From positions 1 through 35,091 of the forward strand of contig JYFJ02004079.1 of NCBI GenBank assembly GCA_000934665.2: DNA of 35,091 nt, read 5' to 3'. The position numbers and the translations under genes are program-made. The stretch's first letter is position 1, and the number at the start of each line of letters is the position of its first letter. This stretch comes from Catajapyx aquilonaris (Eukaryota). Of this stretch, positions 8,058 through 35,091 are shown piece after piece. Under the pieces are notes generated by a model, which searched no databases, was not told the DNA's origin, and saw only the letters and a list, made by a program, of their open reading frames with translations.

Positions 8058-8154
8058 GAACTGGAGCTCCGGATAGATACCCAGAAGCAGACCCTTCAGG
8101 CTCGAGACGAGAGCATCAAGAAGCTTCTGGAAATGCTGCAGAGCAAAGGAGTAG
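8058..8154 (+). CDS. brp: brp/ELKS exon ELELRIDTQKQTLQARDESIKKLLEMLQSKGV(G), phase 0-1
   Basis: cacacag|GAA ... GTAG|gtgagt; 97 nt. TQKQTL.ARDESIKKLLEMLQ.KG is a hallmark motif shared by ERC1/ERC2 and Brp. This frame is not in the ORF track. Confidence 0.95.
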
Positions 8155-9280
8155 GTGAGTGGCCCTCCGAGAGGGGTGATTTGTCCAGGCCTCTGCCCAA
8201 TCAGGTGCAACCCTCTGCTCTTTTTCCAGCCAGTGAAGGATGTTTACTCTCGCTCTCACTTGCGCATTGTCTCAATCACTACCCGCTGAGAGTAAAGAGA
8301 GCAAAAGTTTTAGGCGGGGGGGGCAAAAAAAAAATACCGCCAAATTTTTTAGCACGCGAATTTGCTCGCGGTATTTGTAGCTCTTGAGAAATCTAATAGG
8401 TGCCATAAGTTCTGAATGGGGAGGGGTCGGTGTCAGAGTTTTTTTTTTAAAGTAAGGGAAGCTTTATTTGATTATTGTCTGGATTTATGGCGAGCGATTC
8501 TTCCGGAGCAAAATTTAATGCTGATTAAATTTCTGGCGGGCGTTGTGTAATCGCCGGATGTTTGCAGTTTCCTGCTCTTTTATTCACTGGAGATGTCAAC
8601 AACATAATCCGCGTGTTTCCAGCTGTTGTTGTTTTCGTGGCCATGTTGGCAGCACCAATTTTTTTTGACCACTCAGTATACATTAAACAGGCTCTCTGCT
8701 GGACTATAGTGTCACGGCGGCTTTCAACCGTAAATAGTAAACAGTAAAAACCGTAAATTACAATTCCCACGTACAGTGTTTTGAATGCAAAATATTTTTG
8801 TATAGTAATCTTGCAACATAACCCTACACAGTATGAATGGAAATAACGTGGTCATTTATATGGCCACGAGTAAATTGGGCTCGGTGTGACCCAATCCGCT
8901 AATTGACTACTCGATCTGGTATTTCCAATACAGGCACAAAAAAAATAGATTCCAACATGCAGGAATTATGTTGATATTTTAGGAGTAGTGATGAGGCAAT
9001 GTTTACTCGGGATATGTAATGTTGCGTAATTTACAGAATTGCATGAAAACTGGTATGAAATACTTGAGGTAAAATCTTTGTACGTGACACTCATGCAGGC
9101 CACCTGTTTAATACTTATGACAGTGGGTTTTGCCCAGCATGGCACCAACAACGGCTGGTTTTCCCTTTTTTTTTGCATACATACAAATACATGTAGTGGT
9201 GGCTCGGTCTTATATTGATGGCCTCCTCCCACACCCCTCCACGCCGGCGTGTGTTACCTACAAGAGCCATTTCGTTCTAG

Positions 9281-9336
9281 GGAAAGAAGAAGAGCGGCAT
9301 ATGTTCCACCAAATGCAGGCCTTGGCCCAGAAACAG
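9281..9336 (+). CDS. brp: brp alternative exon A (Brp-type): (G)KEEERHMFHQMQALAQKQ, phase 1-0
   Basis: ttctag|GG ... CAG|gtgcat; 56 nt completes the phase-1 codon. Resembles Drosophila Brp KEEERQMFQQMQAMAQKQ as recalled. Confidence 0.88.
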
Positions 9337-9883
9337 GTGCATTCGTTTTCCTTAAACAAACTACCCCCCTCTAATTATTACTTGTATTTTTTTATTACCA
9401 ATTATTATGGACTTGTCACTTTTTATCATGCTTGCCTGACCAGTGTATTCTTTGCTCACCATAATGGTAGCCAGTCACTATTCTTCTTTTCTTATTTCGT
9501 CTGCAGTTTTTTGTGTTTTCTGACGGTGCAACATATGACATTAGCGCACCAGAGGAAACATGTCACTATGGCGTTCAATTTGACCATTGGTTTTTTGTGC
9601 TCCTGTCCACCCCACCGTCCTTTCCAGTTCCTCAAGTCGGGAATCGTGCCGTTAGCCAATAGGAACCGATAGATACACAGGTTAATATTACTTTCAAAAT
9701 CTAAATCAGAATGAAAGCAACACTTCTTCTGAGCACCAAGTGTAATTTCTTAAGAGCATGTGTCGGTACCTGCTGCGGCACACCCGACAGTGTACTTCCT
9801 ACATATGATTTTTTTTTTTGTTCCTGAAGGAGAGGCTGGGGGGCATCATACTCCTGCTGGAGTGACCCTCGGGTACATTTTGT

Positions 9884-9907
9884 ATGATGATGATGATGAT
9901 GATGATG
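9884..9907. repeat. (ATG)8 microsatellite with degenerate continuation
   Basis: atgatgatgatgatgatgatgatg read directly, about 100 nt upstream of the exon B acceptor. Confidence 0.9.
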
Positions 9908-10006
9908 TGTGATGATGGTGATTTGGGGGAGAGTCACCGCAGAGAAAAGAGGTCTCCTGAAGCTTCTCTGATGGAACGATTCCCCCATGGCCCTTATTAC
10001 TTATAG

Positions 10007-10140
10007 GTGGTAAAATGTCAAATGCGGACGCGGTGGAAATGGAGCGAATGCGAGCTAGGCTTGCGGAAAGCGAAACGCGAGTGCAGCTTCTCGAGCAAAC
10101 CTTGAAGATGCGGGAACAGGAGCTGACTAGGGTGAAGAAT
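10007..10140 (+). CDS. brp: brp/ELKS alternative exon B (ELKS-type): (G)GKMSNADAVEMERMRARLAESETRVQLLEQTLKMREQELTRVKN, phase 1-0
   Basis: ttatag|GT ... AAT|gtgagt; 134 nt, same phases as exon A. Coiled-coil peptide resembling ERC1 ERTRRLAEAEMHVHHLESLLEQKEKE as recalled. Confidence 0.8.
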
Positions 10141-10274
10141 GTGAGTAGGGGCCCTCCAAAACCCCCTCCAACACAATCTATATATTATCTTTTGTGCTGA
10201 TGGTGTCCCGTCGTCCGCTGGAACCCTGGGTAATTGGGACGTTCACACACTAAGCACATGTCCCGGGTGATTCA

Positions 10275-10562
10275 GTGGACTCGCGCAAGTTGCAACGGGC
10301 CATTTTAACCTAGCTCAGGCCCATGCCACGCTTGAGCAGACCTGAATCAGACTTGTGCGCATAGGCCCCCAAACTATAGGGAAGTACGCATGCGTCAAGC
10401 CATTAAGCAGGTTTCTGCGCATGCTCAGGCCCTGAAATGGGCTTATGCGCATGCGCAAGGCCTCACAGCGTGCTTGTGCGCATGCTCAGGGTGAAACTAG
10501 GTCTGTGCGCATGCGCAAGCCCCGGAGAAGGCATAATCAGTGTGTAAATTACGCGAGTCCAC
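10275..10562. mobile_element. MITE-like element: 20-bp imperfect TIRs enclosing a ~30-bp-period array of TGCGCATGCGCA-type palindromes
   Basis: GTGGACTCGCGCAAGTTGCA (10275-10294) versus TGTAAATTACGCGAGTCCAC (10543-10562), 17/20 inverted match. Internal cores start at about 10327, 10356, 10385, 10416, 10446, 10477 and 10506. Confidence 0.6.
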
Positions 10563-12033
10563 ATGAATTCTGTCCAACTTATGTCGGCAGACCCTATCCC
10601 GCGTGAAATGGCGTCAGGAAAAAAAGGCACTTTATCTCTTCTCCCTGAGGATCGATGGAGTGGCCGTCTCCTCAAGAGGGATGAGTGGAACATGAGGGGA
10701 GGGAACGGAGGAGGAAAAGTTGCGACTGAAAAACTTCTCAATTACTCGGGTTCCGATCACTGTCTTGTGCCTTTATTACCTTCCCCCATCGTAGTTTGGT
10801 TGCTTTCCACATTCTTTCCTGACTGTATATCTCTATATATACATTCTATCTCTCAAAAAAATTCCCTGCCATCATTTGTGGAGATTGAAAAATGGGTGCC
10901 TTCAGTGAGGTATGAGTTTGAATTTGAAACCGAAAAATTTTTGCGAAAAAAAAGTCGCTCCTTTTATTTTGGTGTACTATACTTTTTTTTCCTGCGATTT
11001 GGTTTAAAGTTGTTTTTTTCTTGCCGCCGTGCAATTAGGAGGTGTTTAGCAAGCCGTTTTTGCTCCACAACCTGTGACGATTGTGGTCTAAAAACGTTTG
11101 CCCCACAGACTCCATTTTGTACGCTGTTATGTTTTTGCACTTACTTTGCACTGGGTACATCCCATTTCAGTAGGGGGAGATGTAAAAAAAAAGAGTGTGC
11201 TTAGCGATCACTGCACATACACAAAATTGATCAGATCCCGAACCACGTAATCCCTGGCTGACAGAAACCACGCCCGCTTTCCACCTCCCCCAGATGACTA
11301 TTCACGTCAGACCGCACCACACCCCACATATCACACTGTCACTACCCCTCCGACCGACTCTATCGCAATGTCACTTCTCCTGCCAGCCTTTTACGTCACA
11401 TTCCTTCAACCTATGCTGTCAACCGCCCTTTGTTTTACTATCCAGGTCATTAATCTACAGGTTTTGTGCACTTGTAGCTATGGATGCGGTTGTTGATTAA
11501 TGATATTCCACATATTCAATATTATGTATACGTAATTGGTAAATTTTAATAGAAAGCCTTTCAATCAAGTTCGGTGTTGCAATTAACTGTTACATACACG
11601 TTTAAATTACATCAATTTAAGCTCCATGACGTAATGAACAGTGATTATGTTATGATTATATTATGAAGTGCTCTTTGAGCGTCACCTGTTCAATATCCAT
11701 ATTTTACTAATGGAGAGTGCCATTTATCTGGGTATCGCAAGTTTTTTAAGCTCATAGGAGTAATTCGGTGTAATTAAAATGAGCTCATGTCACTATAGAC
11801 AACATCGAATAAGTGGCAGCCAACCTTTCCTATCCACCTGATCTCCACATTATAACCTAGCACCAGCCAGGCACCCCCCCGCAGCGTGGCTACAATGTGT
11901 ACAGGTTTACTCACTTTGGTTAGCTTCTGGCCATTGATTCAGTTCGCCATTCTTTCTTTTTTCTTCCTTTTCTCGTCCCCTCTTACCACTATACATCCCG
12001 CCTCCTCCTTCCTCTGCCTCTTACCCAACACAG

Positions 12034-12414
12034 GAGCTGCGGGGTTCGCATGAGTCCTTGAAAGGCTTGCATCACCACATGGAGAGTATGATGGCAGTGG
12101 GGACTATCCCTGCTGCCAACAAGGCGTCGTCCCAGGTAAACGCGCTCCCCAACTCGGTTCTCAGCACCCTGGTGGAGACCAAAGACGCACGAATCGCCAC
12201 TTTGGAAAAGGAGATATGTCTGTTGGAGCAGGAGCTGAGCCGGGTTAGGGATTTAGGGGGTCCCATGTCCATTCTTCCTCATCACGGCTCCATGTTTGTC
12301 GGGGCCTCCTCCGCTGATCACTCCCTCACCTCCTTGATCTCCTGCACTTCCCCGCTCTCTGACCCGGACGCCTCCTACGGCTCCTTAGGCAAACCGGATA
12401 GGCTCAAGCAGCAA
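12034..12414 (+). CDS. brp: brp/ELKS alternative exon C (ELKS-type): ELRGSHESLK...VLSTLVETKDARIATLEKEICLLEQEL...DRLKQQ, phase 0-0
   Basis: Long pyrimidine tract then acacag|GAG, donor CAA|gtaagt; 381 nt open. Core resembles ERC1 LQTVIEMKDSKISSMERGLRDLEEEI as recalled, with Ser/Pro/His-rich flanks. Confidence 0.8.
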
Positions 12415-15400
12415 GTAAGTCGAAAGGAAATCTGGGTTATACTACTACCTCCGGGGGTATAGGGTCCAGCAGATTTTTTGGGACATGACACCAAAGGGGT
12501 TTTTAGAGGGGAAAGAGTCGAAAAGGACTCGTTCACACGATTGGTTTCGTTTCGGGTCCCTACCAATTTTCAAGGAGCGTGCGAGGAAAGTGTGGAAGAA
12601 AGCCGCCCATGGGGGGAAAAAAAGAGTCTAATCAGAAAACCAAGAGGCCAAAAAATGCAAGCATGATGCCAATGGAAAAACTTTCTCAATCCAATCAGAT
12701 ATTGGAAATTGTTCCAAACACTCATCCTGCTTCCATTCTTTATCCAGCCGGGGCGTGTTTTCCTTCCTTCATTCTGAGGGCCTCTTGCGTGATCGGTGGT
12801 AAATCCAGTCCAAGTGATTAATCTTACTTGAATGCCACTTGTTCTGGTTTTATCATTGGTCACGCAAGCAGGATGGGTTACTTTGGGGACTTTACCAGAA
12901 GGACGAAAGACCGACTCTTGCTTTCTTTGACTCGACGGAGATTTCCTATTGGCAGCTGGCTTTCATTCTGACCCTGTTCTCTCATGGAAGATGTTGCTAA
13001 TAAATATCGCTTGCAAAAGTTAAACTCACTTTTTATGTACAAACTGTGTCGACATTTTTGCAGTATTTCCACTGTAACTATACCCTGAAAATGCAAAGAA
13101 AAAAATGCAAGTATTTAATTTATGGAAAGATTGGCTTGAAGTAAGTAATTGGTTTTAATTATGATGCTTGTGTTGTAATTATTGTATTAATGTGTCATAT
13201 TGGAGGATTTACAAGGGACAATACTGGACTGTAAATATTGTGCAATTGAATATTTTTGAACCAAATTCTTCGAACTTAGGCAAAACGAAAAGCGAGTTTT
13301 ATTTTTGCACCAAACCTTGTTAGACACAACTTTCTCCCCCAAAAAATGGCGGTGGTCCCCCTGCGAAACCAATCCTGCAGCGGATCCTTTTATATAGCCA
13401 CATCGCTTCGTAGCACCCAACCCATTACCTCGGAATCAGACTCAGCTTGTGCACCTTTTGATTTGTTACCCCCCCCTTGGCCCTCTCTTTCGATTGATAA
13501 AAAGAAAAAGAGGAAAGCACCCACACACTATTATACTCACAGCACTTATGGCTTTTTTGTCCTCTTGTTTGTATCGGTTGTGTTGACCCCTCTATTGTCT
13601 AGCTCTCTTCTGTCCTATACTCTTCTTGGCTTTCTTTATAATATTATCTCTCACGTCTGACTAATAGCTGTAGGGAAGAAGTTGTTTTGAAGCTGCACCA
13701 GCGACGATCATAAAATTTGGCCGGAATAATATTGTTTGAAAATGAAAGATGGTCACGTTCAATGTCCACAACCTACGCTCGAAAATTCAGAAGCGTACGC
13801 CGACACCTCCGGATCACTCTTTTACGACGCTTATGGAGTGGAAAATCACTCGTTTTGAATGGGTCACTTTGGTAGTCACAGTTGAGATAATTTTATTCGG
13901 AGTAACAAGCCGCATTTTGAAGAAACGGTTGGCGTGAAATAGGCCCTTGGAATGGTTGACACTTATCGAACGGTTGAAAATGGAATGCACTCGAAATGTT
14001 CCTAATTAAATTCGCCTCTAGTACCAAATCACTTGTATTTCGTTATGAAAGTCATTGGATTATGAAAAAAGGTATATTATGAACACTACTAAGCACTAAC
14101 CATTCTCTTTGTTAAGAAAATGACTTTTGGCAAGTGCTGCTTGAATTTCACTGTAGAGTTGTTCAATTTTTCAGCCACCTGATTGAAGGTCCCTCGATTT
14201 AGAGTGGTTTTCAACTAGAGACAATCAGTGTCACTCTATTTTACAGGGTTGGGTAATCTCGTTTCGAAAGACACGGATCGGCTCCAGGTGTGTCTGGCAA
14301 GGGCGACGCCACTCTTCTGAATTTATAGAGTGTAGCATCTCCTAGAGTCCTAGACTATAAGAAACTATAGCCCCTTGGCTTTTTTGCACGACTATGATCA
14401 TATCTACCAGTGTGATTTTTCCATTTAGGTAGTCCACATTTTTTTGAGTTTGCCTCTTCGCTTCTGTCGGCTTGCTGGTCGTGGCAGGTTGTGGTCACGG
14501 AGAGGCAATTATATTGCCACACATACAAGCTTCAAAAGCTATAGAGTGACACACACACGCAACACGCTCAGACACACCAGACACGCATGGTCAGGGTTTC
14601 TCTCTAGATAGCTGTTGAGTCAGTCACACAAAAGCATATTGGGGGGGGGGGGGGGGNGGGGGGGAATCAGAGCCGGTTTAATTCAAAAATCATGATTATT
14701 TTAGCAATATTATTTATGAGGGATAGATCTTGTGTTGCAACTCAAATATCCGCATTTTTCATTCATTGTTCCTTTCTGTGGGCAGAACCCTAGAAATGTA
14801 TTTTCAAATTGTTATGTTTAATCTACTGTAAATCAAAATACAGTATGTCCAAAAAAATGAAGCAGCTTGTATTTTATAGCGCTGCCAGATTTGTCTTTCA
14901 CCTCGGTCAAAATGGAAGCCAATAGTTGCGAAAGAGAATGATGGGAAGAGCCGAAAGGTCTCTTCTCCCTCGTATTTCCCTCACTCCTGTCTGTTCTCTA
15001 GCTCTTTTTTTTATTATCGAAAATCCATGATGGAGGAGGACAAGCGGGGGTGTAGACAGGGGTGGGAGGGGGGGTGGGAAGGGAGATGAAAAAAAGAGCA
15101 GGTTCCAGCCCCCCCCTCTCCCCAACCCTTCAAAATATCCAGCAGCACCGATGGAGGGGAAGGGGTTTACTGGTGACTTTAGATTTTTTCCGAGCGGTTG
15201 GAAACTGCTGCCGGGAATTGACCATCTAGTTTCAGGAAGAGAAAATAGGATTAGGGATAGACTTCAGCAAAATAGGCAGGTTCAGAAGGGGAGGGTCGGA
15301 ATTTCCACTTTGCAACAAACACATAAGGGTTAACAAACATGACATATCAATCTACACACTGTAATGAAGAGCAGAGCTGTAAATTTGTAGCAGTTAAAGC

Positions 15401-16181
15401 TACGAATTTGCAGCTAAATTCTTCCCACAGCTAATTCACACACGCGTCATACACAACATTTTGTAAAATATTTTCAATTGCAGTGTTATGGACAAGTTAA
15501 TCAGGTAGTGTCATTATCTTACGTTAATTAACACGGCGACGCTACATTTTAAAACCGCTGACAATAAATCCGTCGCTTCTCCCCCCCCCCCCTCCCTTTA
15601 TAGCCTTGTAAAAGAAAATCACATTGGCTTGTATATTACAATGACAGTTGAAACCGGAACGAAACCCATTCTTTCACGAACTTAAATCCTCTTTTGTGAC
15701 TAACCCACACATTTTACCACCTATTTGCAAACGTGTCGTTTTCTTTTCCTCCCCATGACTTTTTCTTTTTCTTTTTTGGTGATTGGATGAATGCAATGAC
15801 TGCATTTTTTTTTTGCTTTTAGTTCTTTTTTTGCATGCCTGGTTGTTCATTTCTTCAATGAAAAAAAGCATGGCCTCTCTCTCTCTGTGAGTCTGCTTTG
15901 TGATATCCCCACTCTCAGAATATACCTAAATGTTGTTATCACCGTCGTTCGATGTGGAGCGTTGTTATACTTTTGGGTGTGCGTGTAATAGTTGTTGTCT
16001 CGATGTCACCATTGTCAGGGAAGCTATTTTCTCGGGATTTTCTCGTCCCTTTCTTCTCTCCCCCCACTTCTCTCAATTATTATCTCTCCGATTCTTTGAC
16101 GAAAATAATAAGGGGGCGAGCTATTATACCTATTAGTCGCAGTTAATGATGTTGATGGAAAAAATCCGCAAATATTTGTTT

Positions 16182-16273
16182 TTCTTCAACAGCTACCAAC
16201 CCCAATTAGCTGTTGCCAGAAACCAGACATTTGAAATAATAATAAAAAAGTATAGCTGGTAGCTGTTGAAGAA
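16182..16273. repeat. Perfect 17-bp inverted repeat (hairpin, 58-nt loop)
   Basis: TTCTTCAACAGCTACCA (16182-16198) and TGGTAGCTGTTGAAGAA (16257-16273) are exact reverse complements. Confidence 0.85.
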
Positions 16274-17285
16274 TGTCAGCTTTTATGTGGTTGCTAATTA
16301 CACTTTGATAATGATCGATTTGCTAATCAAACAGCGTCGATTTCCCACACTTTCCGTCACATTTGTTGGCGACATTGGACGTTTCGGGCTTTTTTTAATA
16401 TCGTGCGTTTTGCGGGATGATTTATCTCGTTTTCATTAAAAATCGCATGCCGCATCATTGCTGCTTTACACCGCGGGACAGTACCGAGGCTGCAGCTGTC
16501 ACAGAAAGTAATGAATGTTGTGAATGATTGAATTATTTAAGCACTACGTTATTGACGGGAGAGTAGCTCTGTGTAATTGTGTCGGGGTGTGACGGGATTA
16601 AAACGTAATGTTTTTGGAAGCTTGTTCACGGACACTGTTTATGCTGTAGAGTTATTGAATAAAGGGTTACGCGGTACTGTAGATTGCCAAGTCATATATT
16701 AGGATAATGAGATGAAACTTTGAGGCCGTAATAGGCTATTATTGTTATAGAGTGTACGTATCTAATGATAGCAGTTTTGTCATAGTTCTTCCCTAAATAA
16801 TATCATCTAGAAGGCCAGTAGTTTTTAGATTAATTGTTAATATTGCAATAATTATTGAGAAGGTGTCGTGCAGAAATGTATACTCTGCCGTGGTTTATTT
16901 AGTGTCAGGTAGCGTTTACGTGCTAATCACATTTAGGTATCCTTCTACCGTAAGAATGGCCATTCCATAAGCGGTGTAGTCAACTCCAAAGTAAATGTAA
17001 TTTTATTCCCGAAAGTTCCACTTTGTTAACATACTAAATGCCTGCGAAATTGGCTTAGTACTTGGAACGCCGATTCCTAACGAATGTGAGAAAGTGTGGC
17101 AATCATCATTCCTTTATTTGATTGGTGTAAAAATAAATCTCAAAATGTACCAAAGAGAGAGGGCGGTGGGGTGAGTTTGGCTTAGTTAAGCACACACAAA
17201 ATGACCTTTAAAAAAATAGAAAAAATGAAAGGAGAGATCGCGCATAACCAACTAGAGCTGGGGGGGTGACCGATGGCGTCTTCAG

Positions 17286-17453
17286 ATCGAGGAGCTCCGG
17301 TGCGAGGTGACCAAAAGGGACCAGGAGCTGCTGGCCATGAGCGCCAAGATGAAGACCCTGGAGGAGCAGCACGCAGACTACCAGAGGCACATCGCCGTCC
17401 TCAAGGAGTCCCTCTGCGCCAAGGAGGAACACTACAACATGCTGCAGGCCGAC
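17286..17453 (+). CDS. brp: brp exon IEELRCEVTKRDQELLAMSAKMKTLEEQH...NMLQAD, phase 0-0
   Basis: cttcag|ATC ... GAC|gtgagt; 168 nt. Contains the conserved HIAVLKESLCAKEEHYNMLQ motif of Brp (HIEVLKESLTAKE in ERC). Confidence 0.95.
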
Positions 17454-18707: not shown

Positions 18708-18875
18708 GTGGAAGAGCTGAGGCTTCGGCTGGAAGAGAAGAACCGACTGATAGAGAAGAAGACCCAGACAGCTCTCCAGGCCAACCAGGACCGAAACAGG
18801 CTGAACAACGAGCTCAACGAGATCAGAGATCACATGGACATCAAGGACCGAAAGATCAACGTGCTTCAGCGGAAG
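18708..18875 (+). CDS. brp: brp exon VEELRLRLEEKNRLIEKK...DHMDIKDRKINVLQRK, phase 0-0
   Basis: tttcag|GTG ... AAG|gtgcga; 168 nt; conserved CAST-domain motif. Confidence 0.95.
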
Positions 18876-20064
18876 GTGCGAAAACACCTCGTTTTTTTTC
18901 CGGGTTATTATTGCTAAAAAGAAGCTGCCTTGTGGGATCGAGAGCTATTTCTCTTCCAGGAATGAGTAGTGGTTGCTCGTGAAAGCAGTTTTCATAGCCG
19001 GGGACCACCGATTCTAAAAGAAGTACTAAATCATATCAGCTACTTTTTTTTTGGGAAGCCCTATCGTATAATGTCAGTTTTGCTCTAGTAATCTCTGATA
19101 CTATCCCGGCTACGTCACGGTAAGTAACGACCGGTGCTTACACTTGGACATAAATCTTCTTCCCGATATTGAATCGTGATTGCTATTGGTGCAGGAGCAT
19201 GATTTGATTTTATAGTTGCCAATTATGTTTTCCTATATACAGTTAATGTGTTGACATTGAGTTGCCATTTAGTTGTTTTGATTTTTTTTTCTGTGTTCAT
19301 TTTATGATTTGTTGTGAACGCTATGTTTTCAGGGATTCCGGACGGTTTGTGTTTCGTAGTTCCAGTTGTTCCCTCTTTTTTTTGGTTGAATTATGACTTG
19401 TTTTCTTCAGAGTTTCCAAGGCCGTGGGTTTCTTTATCATATTTGCGACATTTTACTTTTGAAGAATCGCGTATGAGATGCTCATCGTGACACTGGAAGG
19501 TGAGCCATTTACAAGATCGTTATCTTACTAACATTACTGTCTTGTATACAAGTAATTAAGCGGTGTTGGCCAACCAGATAGAACTTGTAATATTTAAAGA
19601 GACACGACTGAGCACAACAAAGTCTACATTGACTTTTAACAACCCAACCTAACACAAGTTATTCGGTTTATTTGACTGCAAAGAACTCAATATAACTTTG
19701 CTTTTGATTATTTCAGCGTGCAATTCGATGTTTAACTAACCTATAGCACGGTTATACGTAATCTATTTTAAGCAATGAGATTTTATTGCGTGACTTTATC
19801 GCGAATAACAGCTTTGAGATAAATTTTTATTGAATGCACGATTATTGCGAATGTACGAGATTTTGTCGAGATTACACTGCCATTTTTGAACTGTAGCATG
19901 CTATGCTACGAAGAGAAGGAGCAATTACACATGATATCAGATACAGCGCGGATACCTGAAAGCTTTTGGAGCCCATGGCTATACTTATTCTGGTTGGCCA
20001 AAACACATTCCGGTGTTGCCTGGTGTTGTAATGTAACCCGTGTTAATTTCGCCCTGGTCTATAG

Positions 20065-20691
20065 ATCGAGAACCTGGAGGATCTGCTGAAGGAGAAGGAC
20101 AACCAGGTGGACATGGCTCGAGCTCGACTGACCGCGATCCAGGCTCACCACTGCACATCGGAGGGGGCGCTGAGCAGCCTGGAAGAAGCAATAAGCGACA
20201 AAGAGAAGCAGATCCAGCAGCTGAGAGAGCAGCGAGATAGAGCCGAGCAGGAGAAGCACGAAGAGCGAGATCTTCACGAGCGTGAGATTGCAGAGTACAA
20301 GATGAAGATGCATTCGCTGGAGAGCGAAGTGGAGAAGCTCCAGGTGAGGCTGGAGCGAGCCCTGGCCGAGAAGGACAAGCTGGAGGCAAAGCTGGAGAGC
20401 TCGCAGTCGGAACTGGGCAAGTCCAAGGCAGAGCTGGACAAGATGCAAGGGGAGGCTGGGAAGAGCAGCGTGGAGTGGGATGCTGCCAAGCAGAGGCTGA
20501 CCAAACTGGAGCTGGACAACGAGAGGATCAAGGCAGAGAACGAGCGGCTCAGGCACGAGGTCGAGAGGTCACAGACCAGCTACGGACGGTCCACGTTCAG
20601 CACCACGCAGGAGATGGACAGGCTCCAGGAGAAGCTGGACAAGTCGCAAGCGGAGCTTAGGAGAGCCCAGGCAGAGCTCAGGATGAACCAG
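20065..20691 (+). CDS. brp: brp exon IENLEDLLKEKDNQVDMARARL...ELRMNQ, phase 0-0
   Basis: ctatag|ATC ... CAG|gtacaa; 627 nt. Brp-like SEGALSSLEEAISDKEKQ...EERDLHERE and SQSELGKSKAELDK. Confidence 0.95.
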
Positions 20692-21265
20692 GTACAAACG
20701 TGATCTAAATTCGGAAACATGCGGAAAGTATAGCCAGTTAACTGGGAATGAAGGTGACATTTGAAAAGCGATCTGGGCCGTGCAATCGTAGCCTAATTGC
20801 TACATGAAGCAAAACTCAGGTCCGGTGCATTTTACGTCCATGGCGAGACATTAGTCCTAATTGCGATCCCGTCTCTCTGCCGGTTTCTAACCGTTCTGTA
20901 GTCACTCCCAAACTGCTCATGAAGCAAACAGAAGGAAAGGAGTCTCGTGGGACCTGTTAAAATTTGCATGGACACGGTTCCGGAACCGGGTGTGTCTTTA
21001 CATTTTAATGGCCTCGTCCTTTGGGAAACCGCTTAGACCGGCTCACCGACAGTCCCGACGACTCAGACCTTGCCTTGTCACTTCCTTTTTTTATTCCGAC
21101 TCTACAGTGTGCGTGCGTGCAGCCTGTTAGAGCCAGAAGAAAATTCTTTCAACATATGTCTAGCTCAATACCTGCGGCCGAATATATGAATGCTAATGTG
21201 GGAATGGCTAGAAGGGTGTTTTCATTTCGTCCTGAAAGTGTCTTAATGCTTTATTGTAATTCCAG

Positions 21266-22105
21266 GCTGAGTATGAACGGTCGCATGTGGAAGTGGAGCA
21301 GCTCCAGGAGAAGGTGGAGAAATCCCAGGGTGAGATCTACCGGTTGAAGGCCAAGCTGGAGAATGCTCAGTCGGAGAAAGAGAACCTCCAGGACGAGTAC
21401 GACCGAGCCCAGGCTGCGCTGACCAGGCTTCATGGAGAGCGGGACAAGGCTGTTACAGAGCTGGAGAAGCTGAAGGAGGAACTGGAGCGGTCTCAGGCCA
21501 CTCTAGGGAAGGCCCAGCTACAGCAGGAGAAGACACAGAATGCGCTGGACAAAGCCCAGACCGAGCTGGACAAGATGCAGGAGAGGTCGGAGAAGGTACA
21601 GGTCGAAGCCAGGAGGCTCCAGACGGAGAAGGAGAAGCTGGGGTACGATTACGAGAACCTCCAGTCACAGCTGGACAAAGCACAGGGTCAGGCTTCAAGG
21701 CTTCAGAAGGAGAAGGAGACTGCGCTGCTGGAGGTTGACAGGCTGAGGGACAAGTACGAGAAGGTCCAGATGCAGATGGTGAGGGTGCAGAAGGAGAAGG
21801 AGAACTTCCAGACCGAGTCCGAAAAACTGCATGAGAGACTGGAACTGACGCAGGCTCAGTTGGCCAAGGCACAAAGAGATCGAGAGAACACTCAGGCCGA
21901 GTTTGAAGTGCTTAAAGAAAGGTACGAGAAGGGCCAAGCTCAGGTGCAAAAGTTCCAGCTGGAGCGAGACGACGCGCAGACGGAAATAGAGATCCTGAAG
22001 GACAAGCTGGAAAAGGCCCATCTGATTGCCAACAAAGCTCAGGACGACAAGGACGCCGCAGCCAAGGAGTTTGAGAGGATGCTGGAGAAGTACGACCGAT
22101 CCCAG
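21266..22105 (+). CDS. brp: brp coiled-coil exon AEYERSHVEVEQLQEK...MLEKYDRSQ, phase 0-0
   Basis: ttccag|GCT ... CAG|gttggt; 840 nt; E/K/Q/L-rich heptad repeats of the Brp-specific extended coiled coil. Confidence 0.93.
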
Positions 22106-22252
22106 GTTGGTTCAATCTATATGCAAATGTGCCTGGGAGGACACAAATGAGGTTATTCACAACGTATATCTGTGCTGGGAATACAAAACTGTTGCTATTT
22201 TTGTGATGCAATATCTGTTGGCTAACACTGTCTTCTCTTTTGCATTTTCAAG

Positions 22253-22672
22253 AGCGAGGTGTATCGGCTGCAGGGAAAACTGGAGACAGCCCAAGCGGAT
22301 CAGGACCGCCTGCAGATGGAGGCGGAGAAGTCCCAGCTGATGGCAGCCAAGGCCCGCGAGGATCTCCGCAAGGCACAGGAAGACGTCGAGAAGGTTCAGG
22401 AGATGTACGACCGATCATCACTGCAGCTTGGCCGCTGCAAGGAGAGCGAGGAGAAGCTGAAGGAAGAGACGGAGCGAACCGCGGTCGAGACGGAAATGCT
22501 GAGGGAGAGGTACGAGAAGGCCCAGATGGAGCTGAGGAGAGTCCAGAACGAGAAGGAGAAGGTGCAAGCCGAGGTCGAAAAACTGACCTTCGAAGTGGAC
22601 CGTGCCCACACCCAATTCGGCAAGGCGCAGGCAGCGCAGGAGAAATACCAGGAAGAAGTGGCACGCCTGCAG
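22253..22672 (+). CDS. brp: brp coiled-coil exon SEVYRLQGKLE...EEVARLQ, phase 0-0
   Basis: tttcaag|AGC ... CAG|gtaaca; 420 nt, in frame with the flanking exons. Confidence 0.92.
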
Positions 22673-22736
22673 GTAACACGATCTATTCAGTCACATAATT
22701 GACACCACAACCTGACACAAAACATTTCAATTGCAG

Positions 22737-24110
22737 GTTGAGGTTGAGAAGATGTACGACAAGTATGACAAGAGCCAGGCTGAGGTACGGAAGGCGCAGG
22801 CTGATGCAGACAAGGCAAGGCAGGACACCGAGACCATGCAGGTTGAAGTGGAGCGGTATGCGGCCAGAATGGGCAAGTACCAAGACTCGCAGGAGAGGAC
22901 CATTGAAGAGACGGACCGGCTTAAAGTGGACGTTGAGAAGTACAGGGATCGCATGGAGAAGGCACTTGTTGAGCTGGAGAAAGCACGAGAAGCCCGTGAG
23001 AAGGCTGAGAACGACCTGGTGCGGCTCAGGTCAGACGTTGAACGGGCGGAGACGGCCAAAGGAAAACATGCTGAGAAGTGGATCGCGGAAGCCGAAATAC
23101 TTCGCGAGCGGTTAGAGACGACCCAGAATGAACTCCAGCGCTCCAGAACAGCCAACACAACCCTGGATGATGAATTGGGTAGGCTTCGAGTTGAGCTTGA
23201 ACGCAGCCATTCGCAGGCCGAGAAATCAGCCAGCGTGCAGGAGAGACATTCGGGTGAAATTGAGCGAATGCATATCGAGGTGGAAAAACAGCGCGATAAG
23301 GCCGAGAGGGCACAGGCTGAACTCCAGCGACTCCAGTCCCGGCTGGACACCTTGGAGTCTGAAAACCGTCGCCTCAGAAATGAGGTTCAGTCATCCAGTA
23401 CTGCAGTGGAACGGTTTTCAGCAACTCATGAGAAGACCAGGACTGAGGCTGAGCGGACCACTATGGAGCTGGAGAAGACCAGGGATCGCCTGGAGCGAAG
23501 CCTCCAGGATCTCCAGCAAGCGCAGTCTGCACGGGACAAAGCTGAGAGTGATGCAGCAAAAGCCAATCGTGACCTGGAAAGAGCTCAGCAACATCTCGCC
23601 AAGTACCAGGAGACATCGGAGACATCTAAGTCTGAATTCGAGCGCATGTCCAATGAAATGGAGAGGATGCAGGCTAAGGTGGAGAAGAGCCAGATGGAGT
23701 TAAGACGAGGCACAGAAGAGCGCACCAAACAGGAGGCTGAAATCCAGCAGTTGAAGTCAGATCTCGATAGAGCCAGAAATGAAGGACAGCAGAGGACCAA
23801 GGACGAGTCGTCCAAACTGCTGACGCAGCTGGAGGCCGTCCAGGCAGACCTGATGAAGGCAACTAAAGAAAGAGACAAGCTGGGAAGTGCTCTGGAGAAG
23901 AGGGAGAAGGTAGGGGAGAAGGTGGAAAGACAAATAACCAAGCTGGAGGGCGAGGTGAAGCAACTGACCACAGACAGGGACCAGCTGGTCATCCAACTGG
24001 AGAAGTCGCAGGAAATGCTCATGAACTTCCAGCAGGAGCTGCAGCAGTCAGAGGCAGACCTGGAGGCAGCGAGGGTGGAGAACAAGAGGCTCAAGACAGA
24101 GCAAGTGAAG
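22737..24110 (+). CDS. brp: brp large coiled-coil exon VEVEKMYDKYDK...DRDQLVIQLEKSQEMLMNFQQEL...KTEQVK, phase 0-0
   Basis: ttgcag|GTT ... AAG|gtaata; 1374 nt. QLVIQLEKSQEMLMNFQ matches a Brp motif as recalled. Confidence 0.93.
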
Positions 24111-24171
24111 GTAATAATGGTGCACTGTCAGTCTATATTGTTTGTGCTAATACCGACCGAAATATTCACAG

Positions 24172-24663
24172 GTGACAAAAGACGTGGAGCAAGGTGTGAA
24201 GGAGATGTTGGCGAGCAAAGACAAGGAGATCCAGCGGCTTCAGCAGCAACTACAATCTTACGAGAAGGACTCACTGCAGTTACAGCAGGAGAGAAACAAA
24301 GAGCGTCAAAGAGCAGACAAGATGGAGAAGGAGGTGGCTGCAGCTGCAAAGCAGACGCAGGAAAAGGGCAAGGTGGTTGAGTCCGAACTTCAGAATGCAA
24401 AGAAGCTGGCCGATGCAGAGAAGGCGAGGGCAGATGGCGCCGAGAAGGCTGTCCAGGAGCTGCTTCGGCAGACCCAGGAGTTGCAGAAGCAGAGCCAGCA
24501 GCAGAAGCAGCAGTTGCAGCAGGCCAAGGAATCAGCGCCAGACACCCAGAGGATGTCCAAGGACCTCAAGAAAGCACACGAGGAGCTTAAGAATGCTGCT
24601 GTCGAGCGGGAGAGGTTCCAGTCTCAGCTGGAGCTTCTTGTCCAGGAGCTGCAGCAGAAGCAG
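24172..24663 (+). CDS. brp: brp exon VTKDVEQGVKEML...ERERFQSQLELLVQELQQKQ, phase 0-0
   Basis: tcacag|GTG ... CAG|gttctt; 492 nt; Gln-rich coiled coil. Confidence 0.9.
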
Positions 24664-25042
24664 GTTCTTCCAGACAAAAAAAAATAGAAATCACTTGGTG
24701 TTGTTGGCAACTCAATGTCTCACATGCACTGTTTTCCCTCCTTTGGTTTAAGGAAGCACTTAGTTCTACATGTCTGCAACTCAATTATGCCCATAGTAAT
24801 GTGAAGATTTTTGTTGGAGTCATCCAAACATCACTTTTGAATATTAGACCTGCACTATTTATAAATTGTCACCTAATAGAAAAGTTATATTGAACTGCAT
24901 GATTTTAATGTTCCTTTTTTTTGACATATTTGTTACTGGATTTCTTTAGGTGGAATAATTCCTACATGGGAGACTGCACAACGCAGGAATTTCGTGCATT
25001 AGGTCCCCCATCTGAATTGACCCGAGTGTGTCCCATCCCTAG

Positions 25043-25578
25043 GTTGAAGTTCAGGAGGCGAACCAGCGTTTGGCAAATGGTGGTCCCCAGGCGGCGGAGG
25101 CAGCCCAGTTGAAGAAGCAGGTGGATGAGCAGAGGAGGCAACTGGAGGAGCAAAGGAGACAGCTGGAGGAGCAGAGAAAGCAGGCAGAGGAGATGAGAAG
25201 AAAGGCGGAGGAGAGAGGGAAAGGAGCGGACGTGGCCAGGAAAGCAGCGGACGACAGAGGAAAGCAGCTGGAGAAGGCGGAGGCCGAGCTGAAGAGGAGG
25301 AAGGACAGGATAGACCAGCTGGAGCAGCAGCTGCATAAGGCGCAGGCGGAGGCCTCCAAGCCAGGGGCCGCTGCTCCTGCAGGAGGGGCGCAGGCCGCCC
25401 AGCTCCAGAAGGCCCTGGCCGAGAAGGAGAAGGCCCTGGACCTGCAGAAGAAGGAGGTGGAGAAGATGAAGGATGAGGGGCAGCGCTCGCAGGGAGAGCT
25501 GGAGAGGCTGCTGCAGCTGGTGCAGATGAGCCAGGAGGAGCAGAACACCAAGGACAGGCAGATACAGGACCTCCAGCA
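25043..25578 (+). CDS. brp: brp exon VEVQEANQRL...ELERLLQLVQMSQEEQNTKDRQIQDLQ(Q), phase 0-2
   Basis: ccctag|GTT ... CA|gtgagt; 536 nt. ERLLQLVQMSQEEQN is the Brp near-C-terminal motif as recalled. Confidence 0.92.
25127..25210 (+). repeat. Coding 21-nt tandem repeat x4 (EQRRQLE EQRRQLE EQRKQAE EMRRKAE)
   Basis: GAGCAGAGGAGGCAACTGGAG, GAGCAAAGGAGACAGCTGGAG, GAGCAGAGAAAGCAGGCAGAG, GAGATGAGAAGAAAGGCGGAG read directly. Confidence 0.8.
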
Positions 25579-25715
25579 GTGAGTCCACTCGCCTGATCCT
25601 GCATCTCAGATATTTTGTGTCAATGTTTATCATTGATGCAAGTGGACATAATGCAACACTGTGTTAATATTGACTTCTAATGTTTTGGTAATGTGGTGAT
25701 TTTTTCTTTCTGCAG

Positions 25716-26191: not shown

Positions 26192-26550
26192 AAAAGTGAT
26201 GTGGAGGAGCTGCTGAAGAAGGATGAGGTTGACGAGCAGAGTCTGGACGAACTGGAAGAGCTGATCCTGGTTGTGAAGCAGAAGAACGACAGGATAGAAT
26301 CACTGGAGCAAGCCTTGAGGGACAGCCTTGTCATCACATCCCAGCGAGACAGAGAAGAGCAGGTCAAACTTCAACAGGCAAGCCAGCAAGTGACGAAGCT
26401 AGAGCAACGCCTGCAGTCGTTGCAGTCTGCACATGCACTCAGGTGTAACTTGTGCAAACCCATTGCAACTAGGATGAGCGTGTGCCAGGCCAGACTAGAG
26501 ACTCTCCTGACTGAGAGAAGGACCCATCTGCAGGAGCTGTTCGACATGAA
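26192..26550 (+). CDS. brp: ELKS/ERC-type alternative C-terminal exon 1: KSDVEELL...NDRIESLEQALRDSLVIT...ERRTHLQELFDM(K), phase 0-2
   Basis: tgtgtag|AAA ... AA|gtcagt; 359 nt. Resembles ERC1 DRIEELEEALRESVQIT...ERRKHLEEVLEMK as recalled. Confidence 0.85.
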
Positions 26551-26692
26551 GTCAGTACCGAATATTGCTAATTTGCAACAACTTATTGATGTAAAGTAGC
26601 TTGGAATTAGATGGTTGTCATTTTTTGACTCATAAATAATTTTGGCATATGACACAATAGGATGAGCTGTGATATAGCGAACACTTTTGCAG

Positions 26693-26840
26693 GCATGAAG
26701 CGCTTACAGCTGCCATCAGTGAAAAAGATGCTCAGCTTGCTCTTCTTGAAGTCTCTGGGATAAGAACCGCTCGTCAAGCAGAAGACGTTGATAGGCTCCA
26801 GTCTGACAAAAAGAGATTGGTTGCTCGGATAAAAGAAGAG
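26693..26840 (+). CDS. brp: ELKS/ERC-type C-terminal exon 2: (K)HEALTAAISEKDAQLALLEVSG...KKRLVARIKEE, phase 2-0
   Basis: ttttgcag|G ... GAG|gtaagc; 148 nt. Matches the ERC motif KQEALLAAISEKDANIALLEL as recalled. Not in the ORF track. Confidence 0.88.
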
Positions 26841-27034
26841 GTAAGCAAACAAGTTCCAACTTGAAAGCCAAGGGAAAGTGGCTTGGGTCATTTTGCAGAC
26901 GTATATTAGGCAATTTAGATTTGCCTAGGTCATTTCAGTTGTAAAATTTAAACAAATACTGTGCAGCTTTTTTTTATGGATTTGCATTTACACAGGGTAA
27001 TAGCTCTAATTAAACGTAATGAATTTTTGTCCAG

Positions 27035-31106: not shown

Positions 31107-31351
31107 GTGAGTCACAGTCAGATTTCACTGCATGAATTAAAAGGGTGAAAACCAAATTTATCTTATACAAATGAAACTGATTGGGTGTTCAAAGAAATAA
31201 AATGTCAAATAATAGGCACAACATAGACTTTGCATTTTTAAAATATTTTAATTACAACTATTTAGATTAAATATTTCAAGATAGCTGCATGAATAAATTC
31301 AGGTAGCCCTGAGACAATGAACCCACATTTTATTATTTGAATTCATTTCAG

Positions 31352-31483
31352 ATAGTGCTGCAGGAGCCATACATGGCTCCAGCAGAAGCTGCTCATGCAG
31401 CTGCAGAGGTTTTTCCTGAATCAAAAAGAGCAGGCATAAAAATTTTGGATGTTGCTTGTGGAACTGGGGTCGTCGGAGTGCAG
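31352..31483 (+). CDS. METTL27-like methyltransferase exon 2 (IVLQEPY...KILDVACGTGVVGVQ)
   Basis: tttcag|ATA ... CAG|gtaacc; 132 nt; SAM-binding motif I ILDVACGTG. Confidence 0.9.
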
Positions 31484-31614
31484 GTAACCAGTGATCAATC
31501 AAACAATAAGAGTAGTGTTGTCACGTCACAGTCAATCTCAATCGTTATTACGGGCTTAACTGAATCTCATTACGAATTTAATGGTGGCTTGATAACGATC
31601 ATTATGCACTTCAG

Positions 31615-31873
31615 TTGCATGAGCAAGGCTTTCGACACATTGATGGAGTGGATCCCAACTGGAAGATGGTGTCTGAATTGTTGCCCAAACGTGTCTATCG
31701 TCGTGTCACTTTGGCTGCTCTGGGAGATGGTGACAGCAGCAACAGTGTACCGGAGGAATCTGACAAAGAGATCCCCGAGGAGTCCTACGATGCTGTCATT
31801 CTCGCTGGTGGATTTTCCCCTGGCCATGTGCCTTACACGGCCATTTACGACATGCTCAGGGCATGCAAGAAAG
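31615..31873 (+). CDS. METTL27-like methyltransferase exon 3 (LHEQGFRHIDGVDP...YDAVILAGGFSPGHVP...LRACKK(G)); 3' end at 31873 (GA donor) or 31879 (weak GT donor)
   Basis: cttcag|TTG; motifs GF..IDGVD, YDAV and GF.PGHVP. The donor position is ambiguous. Confidence 0.85.
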
Positions 31874-31952
31874 GAATGTGTACTACTCTCTGGTCACACA
31901 TTGGTTTGATGATAATAATTAACTGTCTCAATTAATAGTCTCTGTATTTCAG

Positions 31953-32131
31953 GTGGTGTAATAGTGATAGTCATGCGTCCCGTTGTGCTGATGGATCAAG
32001 ATTATCTGCCACTTGGTCCTCTCATGGAAATCCTGGAAAAAGAAGGAAAATGGAAGCTAGAAAGAAAGAAAGAGTTTAAAAATTATTGGCGTTCCAATCC
32101 TGGCTTAGCATTCACTTTCCGCAAGTGCTAA
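31953..32131 (+). CDS. METTL27-like methyltransferase exon 4 ((G)GVIVIVMR...LEKEGKWKL...AFTFRKC*)
   Basis: tttcag|GT phase 1; open to TAA at 32129-32131. Completes the KxGG motif and the terminal beta strands, giving a protein of about 236 aa. Confidence 0.85.
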
Positions 32132-34399
32132 GAATAATTTATCAGCTCTTCATCTGATCAAATGTATCAGTCATTTATTAACCTCTACGTTGGCAATTAA
32201 TCAAACAAAAATAGCGCTGAAGCTTTGCGTGGCAGTGTTGTGTGTAATCATTTGTTATATCTTCTGTTATAAGATACAACGTGTATCTTAATGTGTGCAT
32301 GGTCTTGACTAAGTAAATAACTTACGCTAAAAATCTGAACAAGTCCGATTTACTATATAGTGAATGACATTTAGTTGGCCTATAACTTGCATAAGATCCC
32401 GAAAATGTTTAGGAGAGAACCTGTGATTTTATTATATGCAGCTATTAAAGAGCCTTTATAAAATGCATCATTAAACACTGATGTCTTAGTATTGGCCTCA
32501 ATTTGTGCCAAATCGCTTCATGTTTAAAACTCGCTCCATGTCTTTGGTGGTGTTAGCAAAATGTTTGTGTGTAAAAGTTAATCAAGGTCGCTTTGGGCCA
32601 CCTCAGCTGACATTGAATATAGCTGGAACAGTGGCCTCGTATCGAACATTTGATAAGCACCCCAAATTGCCATACTTGCGCAATACATAAAGATTGGAAA
32701 CAGAAACAAGCTCTTAGCACCCACACGTGCGGAGGCCATTCGATTTCATTACTCATTAATGATAATTATTTGGTACAACACTAATGCCCAAGAACTTGAG
32801 AATTTGCCTAGCACACTCTGAGCTCTTGATGATAGAGAAAGACTCACTGAATAACTGAAATTACCATTCCAGGATATTATTTTGTTAAATACTTTTGTTT
32901 ACTCGATTAACAAAGGAAACTCTCACATTTGCCTTTCATCATTATGTACGATTTATTCGCGAAAAATTGAAACAAGCATCAATGTCAGGTGTAGTGATCA
33001 ATAAAATATTTGGTTTCATCCACCACTGCTATAAAACTGGAATAACATTTTAATAATAGGCTTGCATGGAAGCAAATGAGGGAAAATCTCCAATTATGAA
33101 CAGGTATTCACAATGGATAATAACTTACAATATATTTGGGGGGGGGGGGGGAGGTTTACTCCTTAATTTGAATTTATTAACCGGCCGTCAGGGTAAATCA
33201 AGGAGAAAATGTCCCAAAAATTTCGATTATGAATTGCTTGCATAATCGAACACGTCCCGTAATTTGCGCGAAATTAATTGCATTAACTAATTTAAGAAGT
33301 GTGTGTAGTTATCAAACTGAAAAATGGGAAATGTAGCATCTTATTTACCCAGATTTTCGCAGATTAATATCTGAAATTGAGAACTATCTGTTACAGCTTC
33401 CTCTAAATTGAATCGACCATATACGTAATAATGATCAGGACACTTTCCTGACAGAGAATTATTCAGTTTCCCAAGCAAAATATATGAATGAAAAATGTAT
33501 CATGTGTGCATTATCAAGGGCATTTTCCTACACTGTGTTTCACAATGATGCCGACAAACTCCTGGGGTGAATATTCCTGCTGGCCATATAGGATCAAGGT
33601 ATAAGGATATGTCAGTTACTCAGATTATGATCTGCAAATAAAAGGTCTAAAATATCTCACAGTGCCATATCTATTTTGTCATTTTACTTTTATGTATCAA
33701 TATGGAATAATTTAAATGTAAGACACAGACTCTGATTAATTCGTCAGGACTTCCGGTATATTATGGTGTGGTACACAATCGACAACTGAGGACAGAATTT
33801 TCAAGCATTCCCGCCATTGCCGCAATATCGTCTTAAATTATTTTTTTCATGCTATAGGATAAGTTAGTGTTTCCTGCGTACGTGTTGCATAAACATTAAA
33901 ATCAGGCATGGTCCTATATAGCAATCGGATTGTTACACGTGGCGCAGTTCCTTAGGAAATTCCGCAATTCTAAATACACTGAACAGTGCCAATTACACTA
34001 CCTATTGATCTGAGCCATTAGAGCTTTCAACATAGCGATTCCTGAGTCGATACCAAGTGTGCCTCTCTACTACGATGTGGTGTATCAGAATCTTGATCTT
34101 ATCATTCTGCCCGTTCGTAATTAAATACGCTTGTGGAGAAATACCACATTGCGCATATTCCAAACACTAGTGTGGCTTCATTTTTCATACTCTACATTTT
34201 GTATTGCGGCTTGAGTAGTTGAATACGTCGCTAGGAACTTGGATCCCTATAACATTTCAGTGTGTCGGTCATTTAAGACTCACTACACATTACGTGCAGT
34301 ACCATGGTGACCTTCCAAGTGTGAAGTTTGTGCATTTCAAGAATCTACAGTGTAGGGCCTACCTTTGTTTATAATTAGTGGATCTGCAGTAGCACGGAA

Positions 34400-35091
34400 A
34401 TGGTCGTCATGACTGTCAGGAGCATGTTGTTCTTTTCCGTGGTCTTTAATGCGCTGGTCTTGACACCGGCACACTTCCCTCCTTTCGTCAATGAAAATAG
34501 CACAAGAATTGAGGTGCTTGTTTCCAGTCTGGTGCAAGACATTCACTCTGAGAAGTTACCCGAATGTACTCTTTTGCTAGCCCACGACTTTGTGTCTGCT
34601 CCGAAGACGATTCAAACGATCCTGTCTAATGCGAACGAACAATATCGCCCGACACTGTCTCTGTCCCCTCCCGAGTCCTTCTCTGTCCCTGATGACGCAT
34701 CGCATCGAGATTATTGGGACATTAGCTCCAAGGAGTGGACCGGTCCTTGTCTGGTGCAGCTGCTCACCCCCAGGACATCCGGACTGGTCAACCGGATGAG
34801 CATCTTCGTCTCCACCAGGGTCAAGGTCAGGTCAGACGATGACCACGTCGTCATATGGACCAGGGAAGACCCGGACAAGGCCATTTCACCAAAGGAGGAC
34901 AGGACCAACAGCATGCTGGGGATGAGGTGGAAGGTGGCCATCAAGCCTTCTCCTGATGGAGGGTCACTGGAGCTGGCCACCATTTGCTTCTTTCGCAACG
35001 AGGGAAACCACTCCAAGGTCACTCTGGGACACTATCCGGGACTGGGGGTAGGGGACTTGTTTCCAGATAACACGAAGCATTTCCATGGCAG
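34400..35091 (+). CDS. Probable divergent ionotropic receptor (IR, iGluR-derived chemoreceptor), N-terminal part; runs off the window end
   Basis: First ATG after an in-frame TAG (34376); 230 uninterrupted codons. Hydrophobic signal-like start MVVMTVRSMLFFSVVFNALVL, N-glycosylation sequons NST and NHS. Ends ...ICFF...DLFPDNTKHFHG, resembling the LFPDKxxNFHG motif that precedes the S1 lobe in arthropod IRs. Confidence 0.65.
   Translation, partial: MVVMTVRSMLFFSVVFNALVLTPAHFPPFVNENSTRIEVLVSSLVQDIHSEKLPECTLLLAHDFVSAPKTIQTILSNANEQYRPTLSLSPPESFSVPDDASHRDYWDISSKEWTGPCLVQLLTPRTSGLVNRMSIFVSTRVKVRSDDDHVVIWTREDPDKAISPKEDRTNSMLGMRWKVAIKPSPDGGSLELATICFFRNEGNHSKVTLGHYPGLGVGDLFPDNTKHFHG

Follow-up and report, generated by a model that had tools for sequence, protein, structure and literature searches.

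The Bruchpilot/ELKS gene of Catajapyx aquilonaris

The 35,091-nucleotide stretch of Catajapyx aquilonaris DNA considered here (the window) carries on its + strand one animal gene of the Bruchpilot/ELKS (Cast) family, and our concern is with three of its exons, A, B and C, which lie between two constitutive exons and appear to be spliced alternatively. Three exons of the gene exceed the 29.1-bit cut-off of the Pfam Cast profile (PF10174), namely those at 17286-17453 (E 7.6e-14) and 20065-20703 (212 amino acids, E 3.7e-14) and the terminal exon at 26673-26864 (E 4.7e-10), and when crab, insect-like and tick proteins are compared with the window by tblastn they give ordered + strand matches running from 5847 to 26834. 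The gene thus belongs to the ELKS/CAST/ERC/Bruchpilot family on two counts, a significant match to Cast and exon-by-exon colinearity with named members. It is a single gene that contains both long Bruchpilot (Brp)-type coiled-coil exons (20065-24687) and ELKS-type terminal exons (26192-26864).

The constitutive upstream exon (8058-8154, + strand) encodes ELELRIDTQKQTLQARDESIKKLLEMLQSKGV plus one further base (...LLEMLQSKGV), ends in phase 1 and has the donor gtgagt; it is 76-93% identical to the equivalent segment in 14 of 15 compared homologues, the other being P0003, a partial model without that segment that gives a chance match only. The constitutive downstream exon (17286-17453, + strand; IEELRCEVTKRDQELLAMSAKMKTLEEQH...) is entered in phase 0 behind the acceptor ...cttcag and shows 73-89% identity to 14 of the 15, P0018 lacking the segment and again matching by chance only. 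Between them, all on the + strand, lie exon A (9281-9336; 56 nucleotides, 19 amino acids, phase 1 to 0, acceptor ...ttcgttctag, and a weak donor, gtgcat), which is translated as GKEEERHMFHQMQALAQKQ; exon B (10007-10140; 134 nucleotides, phase 1 to 0), which encodes a coiled-coil segment of 45 amino acids in an open frame of the right phase, with a good pyrimidine tract before its acceptor AG (...ttacttatag) and the donor gtgagt; and exon C (12034-12414; 381 nucleotides, 127 amino acids, phase 0 to 0), with a strong acceptor (...cccaacacag) and the donor gtaagt. Every splice site of the module is of the GT-AG type. When homologous segments are compared by tblastn with the 9.1-kb stretch between the constitutive exons (8155-17285), each of the three is matched once, on the + strand and in the correct frame, A by a Drosophila yakuba protein (E 1.4e-9), B by a tick protein (E 5e-9) and C by a butterfly protein (E 4e-13), and there are no further matches; judged by these values, the exons are no chance agreements.

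The phases of these exons restrict how they can be combined. A single base of an unfinished codon is left at the end of the upstream exon, and the downstream exon opens with a complete codon; as A and B are both 3n+2 bases long and C is 3n, a productive mRNA needs exactly one of A and B. Splicing in silico by coordinate gives A, A+C, B and B+C as the in-frame combinations; the frame is shifted if A and B are both skipped, and likewise if C is included alone, and the A+B form reads VVKCQ...SSKP before stopping at a TGA at 10103-10105 (+ strand), inside exon B in the frame shifted by A. An earlier note on this DNA had placed the three exons, assigned phase 1 to 0 to both A and B, and claimed a premature stop for joint inclusion and a frameshift for joint skipping; reading of the DNA bears out each of its coordinates, and the in-silico splicing agrees with the rest. 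A and B therefore have the structure of mutually exclusive exons, being neighbours with canonical sites of which either alone keeps the frame and both or neither break it. The inserts possible at this one point of the coiled-coil rod are 19 (A), 45 (B), 146 (A+C) or 172 (B+C) amino acids long. We read the region, with a probability of about 0.7, as a three-exon alternative module between two constitutive exons, in which an either/or choice of A or B is accompanied by a separate, optional C.

Isoforms of related genes

Protein records of other arthropods bear directly on this reading; our protein searches covered proteins of up to about 1,900-2,000 amino acids, and the long Brp-type isoforms lie outside that range. 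The crab Scylla paramamosain is the most informative, as its gene O3P69_001991 (GenBank KAK8407048-57) has ten listed products, seven of which span the region: four contain A only, two A+C (P0178, P0183), one B+C (P0179), and none A+B. The B+C product P0179 and the A-only product P0169 are identical on either side of the alternative region. In a second crab, Eriocheir sinensis, the ELKS/Rab6-interacting/CAST family member 1-like isoform X17 (XP_050727202.1, P0057) contains B+C and is 97% identical over 618 amino acids to an assembled-contig protein carrying A, the differences adjoining the module. Tick-like proteins have either B alone (P0009-12, P0015) or B+C (P0013, whose cluster includes Rhipicephalus records, and P0014), and B is found without C in P0016 and P0017 as well. 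The butterfly Leptidea sinapis provides an A+C form (isoform X6, P0056) and a similar protein (P0080) has A only, as do the fly proteins that we fetched. A 2.8-kb intronless metatranscriptome contig (L010) runs from the upstream exon through A, C and the downstream exon into Brp-type coiled coil. Since there are A+C forms and B-only forms, B and C need not occur together; A followed by B was found in no protein examined, the seven Scylla isoforms included.

In one of the tick-like proteins, P0011 (787 amino acids), the ELKS-type body breaks off early and is followed by a short Phe-rich terminus (...FFSSFF) that may resemble the C-terminal end of fly Bruchpilot. A simple pattern search of the window between 25500 and 35091 found no Phe-rich end of an open reading frame like that of P0011.

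Exons A and B

Exon A is 84% identical to the corresponding segment of a D. yakuba Brp homologue (P0005), and among the sequences examined the A type occurs in insects and crustaceans, and in sequences resembling those, and in none outside them. At least nine proteins with an A-type segment have an ELKS-type C-terminus (P0065, P0076, P0078, P0080, P0169, P0170, P0171, P0174 and P0176), so A is not a Brp-specific marker. The A and B segments have a common GK..EEER.M start, and we therefore considered that A might have come from B by duplication and truncation; when 10 A and 13 B segments were compared as profiles, hhalign gave a probability of 0.3% and an E value of 0.19, and as this is no significant similarity an origin of A through duplication of B is unsupported. 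At 56 and 134 nucleotides the two exons also lack the similar length that, together with detectable similarity, marks tandem duplicates.

The segment directly behind ...QSKGV in the tick-like proteins P0009-12 and P0015, in P0016 and P0017, and in a spider protein (P0004) shares 33-47% identity with exon B, and the crab B segment about 35%. The B form is common to chelicerates and deuterostomes, and in a multiple alignment B and C together are colinear with the segment after ...LLEMLQSKG in Rana temporaria ERC1, Xenopus laevis ERC2, lancelet ERC1 and starfish ELKS. In P0179, the crab isoform with B+C, one continuous match to Cast (profile positions 6-263) spans B and extends into the core of C.

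The intron between B and C contains a 288-bp stretch (10275-10562) that is bounded by 20-nucleotide inverted repeats, 85% complementary, and is full of repeated units containing GCGCATGCGC. It looks like a small inverted-repeat transposon.

Exon C

Exon C consists of a conserved coiled-coil core (...LSTLVETKDARIATLEKEICLLEQELSRVR...) and a variable tail. Its own match to Cast is weak (E 0.041, profile positions 223-261) and lies just ahead of the match of the next exon at positions 291-345. A word-index search of longer proteins with exon C gave no match; an exhaustive HMMER search later gave 26 at E values up to 0.001, from which we dropped an unrelated repeat protein (P0027), leaving 25 true homologues, mostly short stand-alone open reading frames. 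Similarity among them starts at the exon start in the window (...ELKATNE...), is strongest in TLTAILETKDARIATLEKEV.LLEQEL and stops at ...K(R/H/Q)Q, behind which stands VS, the translated read-through of a GTAAGT donor; conservation thus begins and ends at the exon borders of the window. A scan of metagenome contigs with exon C yielded 16 loci, of which we examined 13 at the DNA level, leaving out the spliced L010 and two weak matches (L015, L016). In all but one of the 13 a pyrimidine tract and AG precede GAGCT... and the exon ends in CAA|gtaagt, as in the window; the exception, L014, fell outside the search pattern.

With a length that is a multiple of three and phase 0 at both ends, exon C has the form of a cassette, and it is both included and skipped in relatives, as seen in the crab (P0178 with it, P0169 without), in tick-like proteins (P0013 and P0009, respectively) and in butterfly-like proteins (P0056 and P0080). 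Taken together, the sequences indicate that exon C is an independent, deeply conserved optional cassette that is not tied to B, and we infer that it alternates in C. aquilonaris as well. At least two of the stand-alone frames, those in the hymenopterans Ampulex compressa (P0041, KAG7200290.1) and Acromyrmex echinatior (P0043, EGI58230.1), are annotated as 'hypothetical protein', and each is probably an orphaned, mis-annotated exon of the Brp/ELKS gene.

We also note that isoform H of D. yakuba GE19282 (P0008) has an 18-residue insert immediately after its A segment. Within the window this insert best matches the core of exon C, at 8 of 16 identical residues, which is not significant (E 2.8); the insert could be a shrunken remnant of exon C or could be unrelated to it.

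Alternative explanations and mechanism

One alternative is that exon B is a relic in C. aquilonaris, where only A, with or without C, would be spliced as in flies and an ancestral ELKS exon B would persist unused and undecayed. Insects give this idea some encouragement, as there is no insect protein with B among the best 120 of 4,069 region-search matches, although one would be expected to rank near the top, and four insect-like genomic loci (L004, L005, L009, L011) show neither A nor B by tblastn within 6.5-7.6 kb upstream of exon C, reflecting either longer introns there or the absence of B. However, the exon has retained its open frame in the right phase, its pyrimidine tract and AG, and its gtgagt donor, and the degree of identity to the B segments given above would be unexpected of unused DNA across such distant lineages; crabs, moreover, carry A and nonetheless use B. 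We therefore regard a relic B as unlikely. Routine inclusion of both A and B, the frame being rescued by a further splice site, is far less probable still: exon B does contain an in-frame internal AG (10043-10044), but it has no pyrimidine tract, and in no protein examined from any relative does any part of B come after A.

The earlier note proposed a two-state switch, in which A alone, of 19 amino acids and Brp in identity, would alternate with an obligatory B+C of about 172 amino acids and of ELKS identity, perhaps in coordination with a choice between Brp-type and ELKS-type C-termini. The observations from which it set out hold: A does match Drosophila Bruchpilot, as its identity to the D. 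yakuba segment shows, B and C do match vertebrate ERC1 after LLEMLQSKG, both in the colinear alignment and by the Cast profile, and A and B are frame-incompatible alternatives that the isoforms of a single crab gene carry singly and never together. The frame-enforced either/or choice thus stands. The two-state switch has in its favor that both crustacean proteins with B (P0057, P0179) carry C, that B+C is the arrangement of vertebrate ERC proteins, and that the window has Brp-type exons as well as ELKS-type terminal exons within one gene. Against it are the A+C forms of crab, butterfly and L010 and the tick-like proteins that have B but no C, and the Brp identity of A is likewise contradicted by its presence in so many proteins with ELKS-type ends. 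As for the C-terminal choice, A occurs with ELKS-type ends and A+C is joined to Brp-type sequence in L010, and relatives thus give no support, within the lengths searched, for its coupling to the module. Pairing, marker and coupling are therefore unsupported, and the two-state switch as a whole seems to us improbable, rather more so than a relic B.

Several points nevertheless weigh against the either/or choice of A and B with an optional C. The use of B and C in C. aquilonaris itself is read only from intact frames, splice sites and conservation; mutually exclusive pairs usually bear the marks of exon duplication, which A and B, differing in length and without significant similarity, do not; and B without C is limited to the tick-like sequences and P0016/P0017, with none from insects or crustaceans. 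Some of the isoforms of relatives are annotation models (the X-numbered RefSeq records are predictions), and perhaps not all of them are real. An inverted-repeat search of 8155-12033 produced no convincing competing RNA structure, the seven inverted repeats found there being of 14-20 nucleotides and mostly A/T runs, although one of them pairs the exon A acceptor (9278-9294) with 9478-9494 at 82%. Finally, clearance of the non-productive forms by nonsense-mediated decay is an assumption, and the premature stop is the part that is observed.

If the either/or choice with an optional C is correct, a productive mRNA would hold exactly one of A and B, and C could follow either. Transcripts with both would run into the TGA within B, those with neither would be frameshifted, and both kinds, being non-productive, would probably be removed by nonsense-mediated decay. 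The choice between A and B would presumably be set by cell-type-specific splicing factors, with the frame rule merely cleaning up splicing mistakes, and the module as a whole would set the length of the coiled-coil rod at one point. We also considered steric hindrance and U12-type incompatibility as causes of the exclusivity and rejected both: the intron between A and B is 670 nucleotides long, which makes steric hindrance unlikely, and all of the sites are GT-AG.

Other features of the locus

Other stretches of the Brp/ELKS gene lie at 18708-18877, 20065-24687, 25043-25582 and 26192-26864. In ELKS-type proteins of the crab, the butterfly and other insect-like sources, as compared with the window by tblastn, ...KINVLQRK (window position 18877) is joined directly to the segment that matches from 25043 onward, and the whole Brp block is skipped. 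We rejected an ELKS-type short form made through an internal donor in exon 20065-20703, there being no GT at the expected place (about 20454). Two + strand open frames downstream of the gene, at 31313-32131 and 34379-35089, have no Pfam match at E 0.001 and are probably exons of neighbouring genes. Lone N bases stand within introns at 14657 and 18446.

Evolution of the module

The fly active zone is built around Bruchpilot, and accounts of how this protein came from an ancestor of the ELKS type usually consider only the additional C-terminal half. The present locus and its relatives show that there is a conserved splice module in the N-terminal, ELKS-like half too, through which a single gene offers the fly-type A and the vertebrate-type B as alternative segments. 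From the distribution of the sequences, B+C would be the ancestral, bilaterian arrangement of ELKS, and A appears to have arisen in the lineage of insects and crustaceans as a substitute for B. A tentative scenario that joins these points, and to which we give somewhat less than even odds, is that the 19-residue segment of fly Bruchpilot is one arm of an old either/or pair, born at the base of insects and crustaceans beside the ancestral B; crustaceans and Catajapyx would still use both arms together with the older, optional C, and flies would have fixed A and lost B. One gene with a Brp- or ELKS-type body and tail could in this way supply combinatorial active-zone scaffolds, with the rod length (19, 45, 146 or 172 amino acids at this point) tuned to the type of neuron.

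Comparison with known systems

The frame relationship of A and B has a counterpart in the IIIb and IIIc exons of FGFR2, reportedly (from work attributed to Jones and colleagues in 2001) a pair of frame-enforced mutually exclusive exons whose faulty combinations are cleared by nonsense-mediated decay. In both cases two adjacent alternative exons destroy the frame if they are included or skipped jointly; unlike IIIb and IIIc, A and B have very different lengths (56 and 134 nucleotides) and no significant similarity, and decay is here proposed by analogy. The module is thus ordinary frame-constrained alternative splicing, already to be found in public records from crab, tick and butterfly, yet apparently undescribed: we found no published description of it in the open full-text literature, a scope that does not extend to the original, subscription-only Bruchpilot papers.

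Among members of the family, Drosophila Bruchpilot, represented by the D. yakuba GE19282 isoforms, resembles the window in exon A (84% identity), in the flanking exons (77-82%) and in the possession of long Brp-type coiled-coil exons, and differs in that the D. yakuba proteins fetched have no B or full C. The fly isoforms BRP-190 and BRP-170 described by Matkovic et al. (2013; PMC3747298) differ at the N-terminus and not at the A/B/C module. The vertebrate proteins ERC1/ELKS and ERC2/CAST (Rana temporaria ERC1 X2, Xenopus laevis ERC2) and lancelet ERC1 share with the window a colinear B+C in a stretch covered by the Cast profile, and they differ from it in that none of those sequences has an A-type segment. 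The genes of the crabs Scylla (O3P69_001991) and Eriocheir (isoform X17) are known in this respect from annotation records alone, only ELKS-type ends are visible in their proteins within the lengths searched, and the identity of their exons to those of the window ranges from only about 35% (B) to about 70% (A); these genes nevertheless are of the same family and carry the three-exon module at the corresponding position, preceded, as in the window, by a split glycine codon (...KGIG|K... or ...KGIG|D...).

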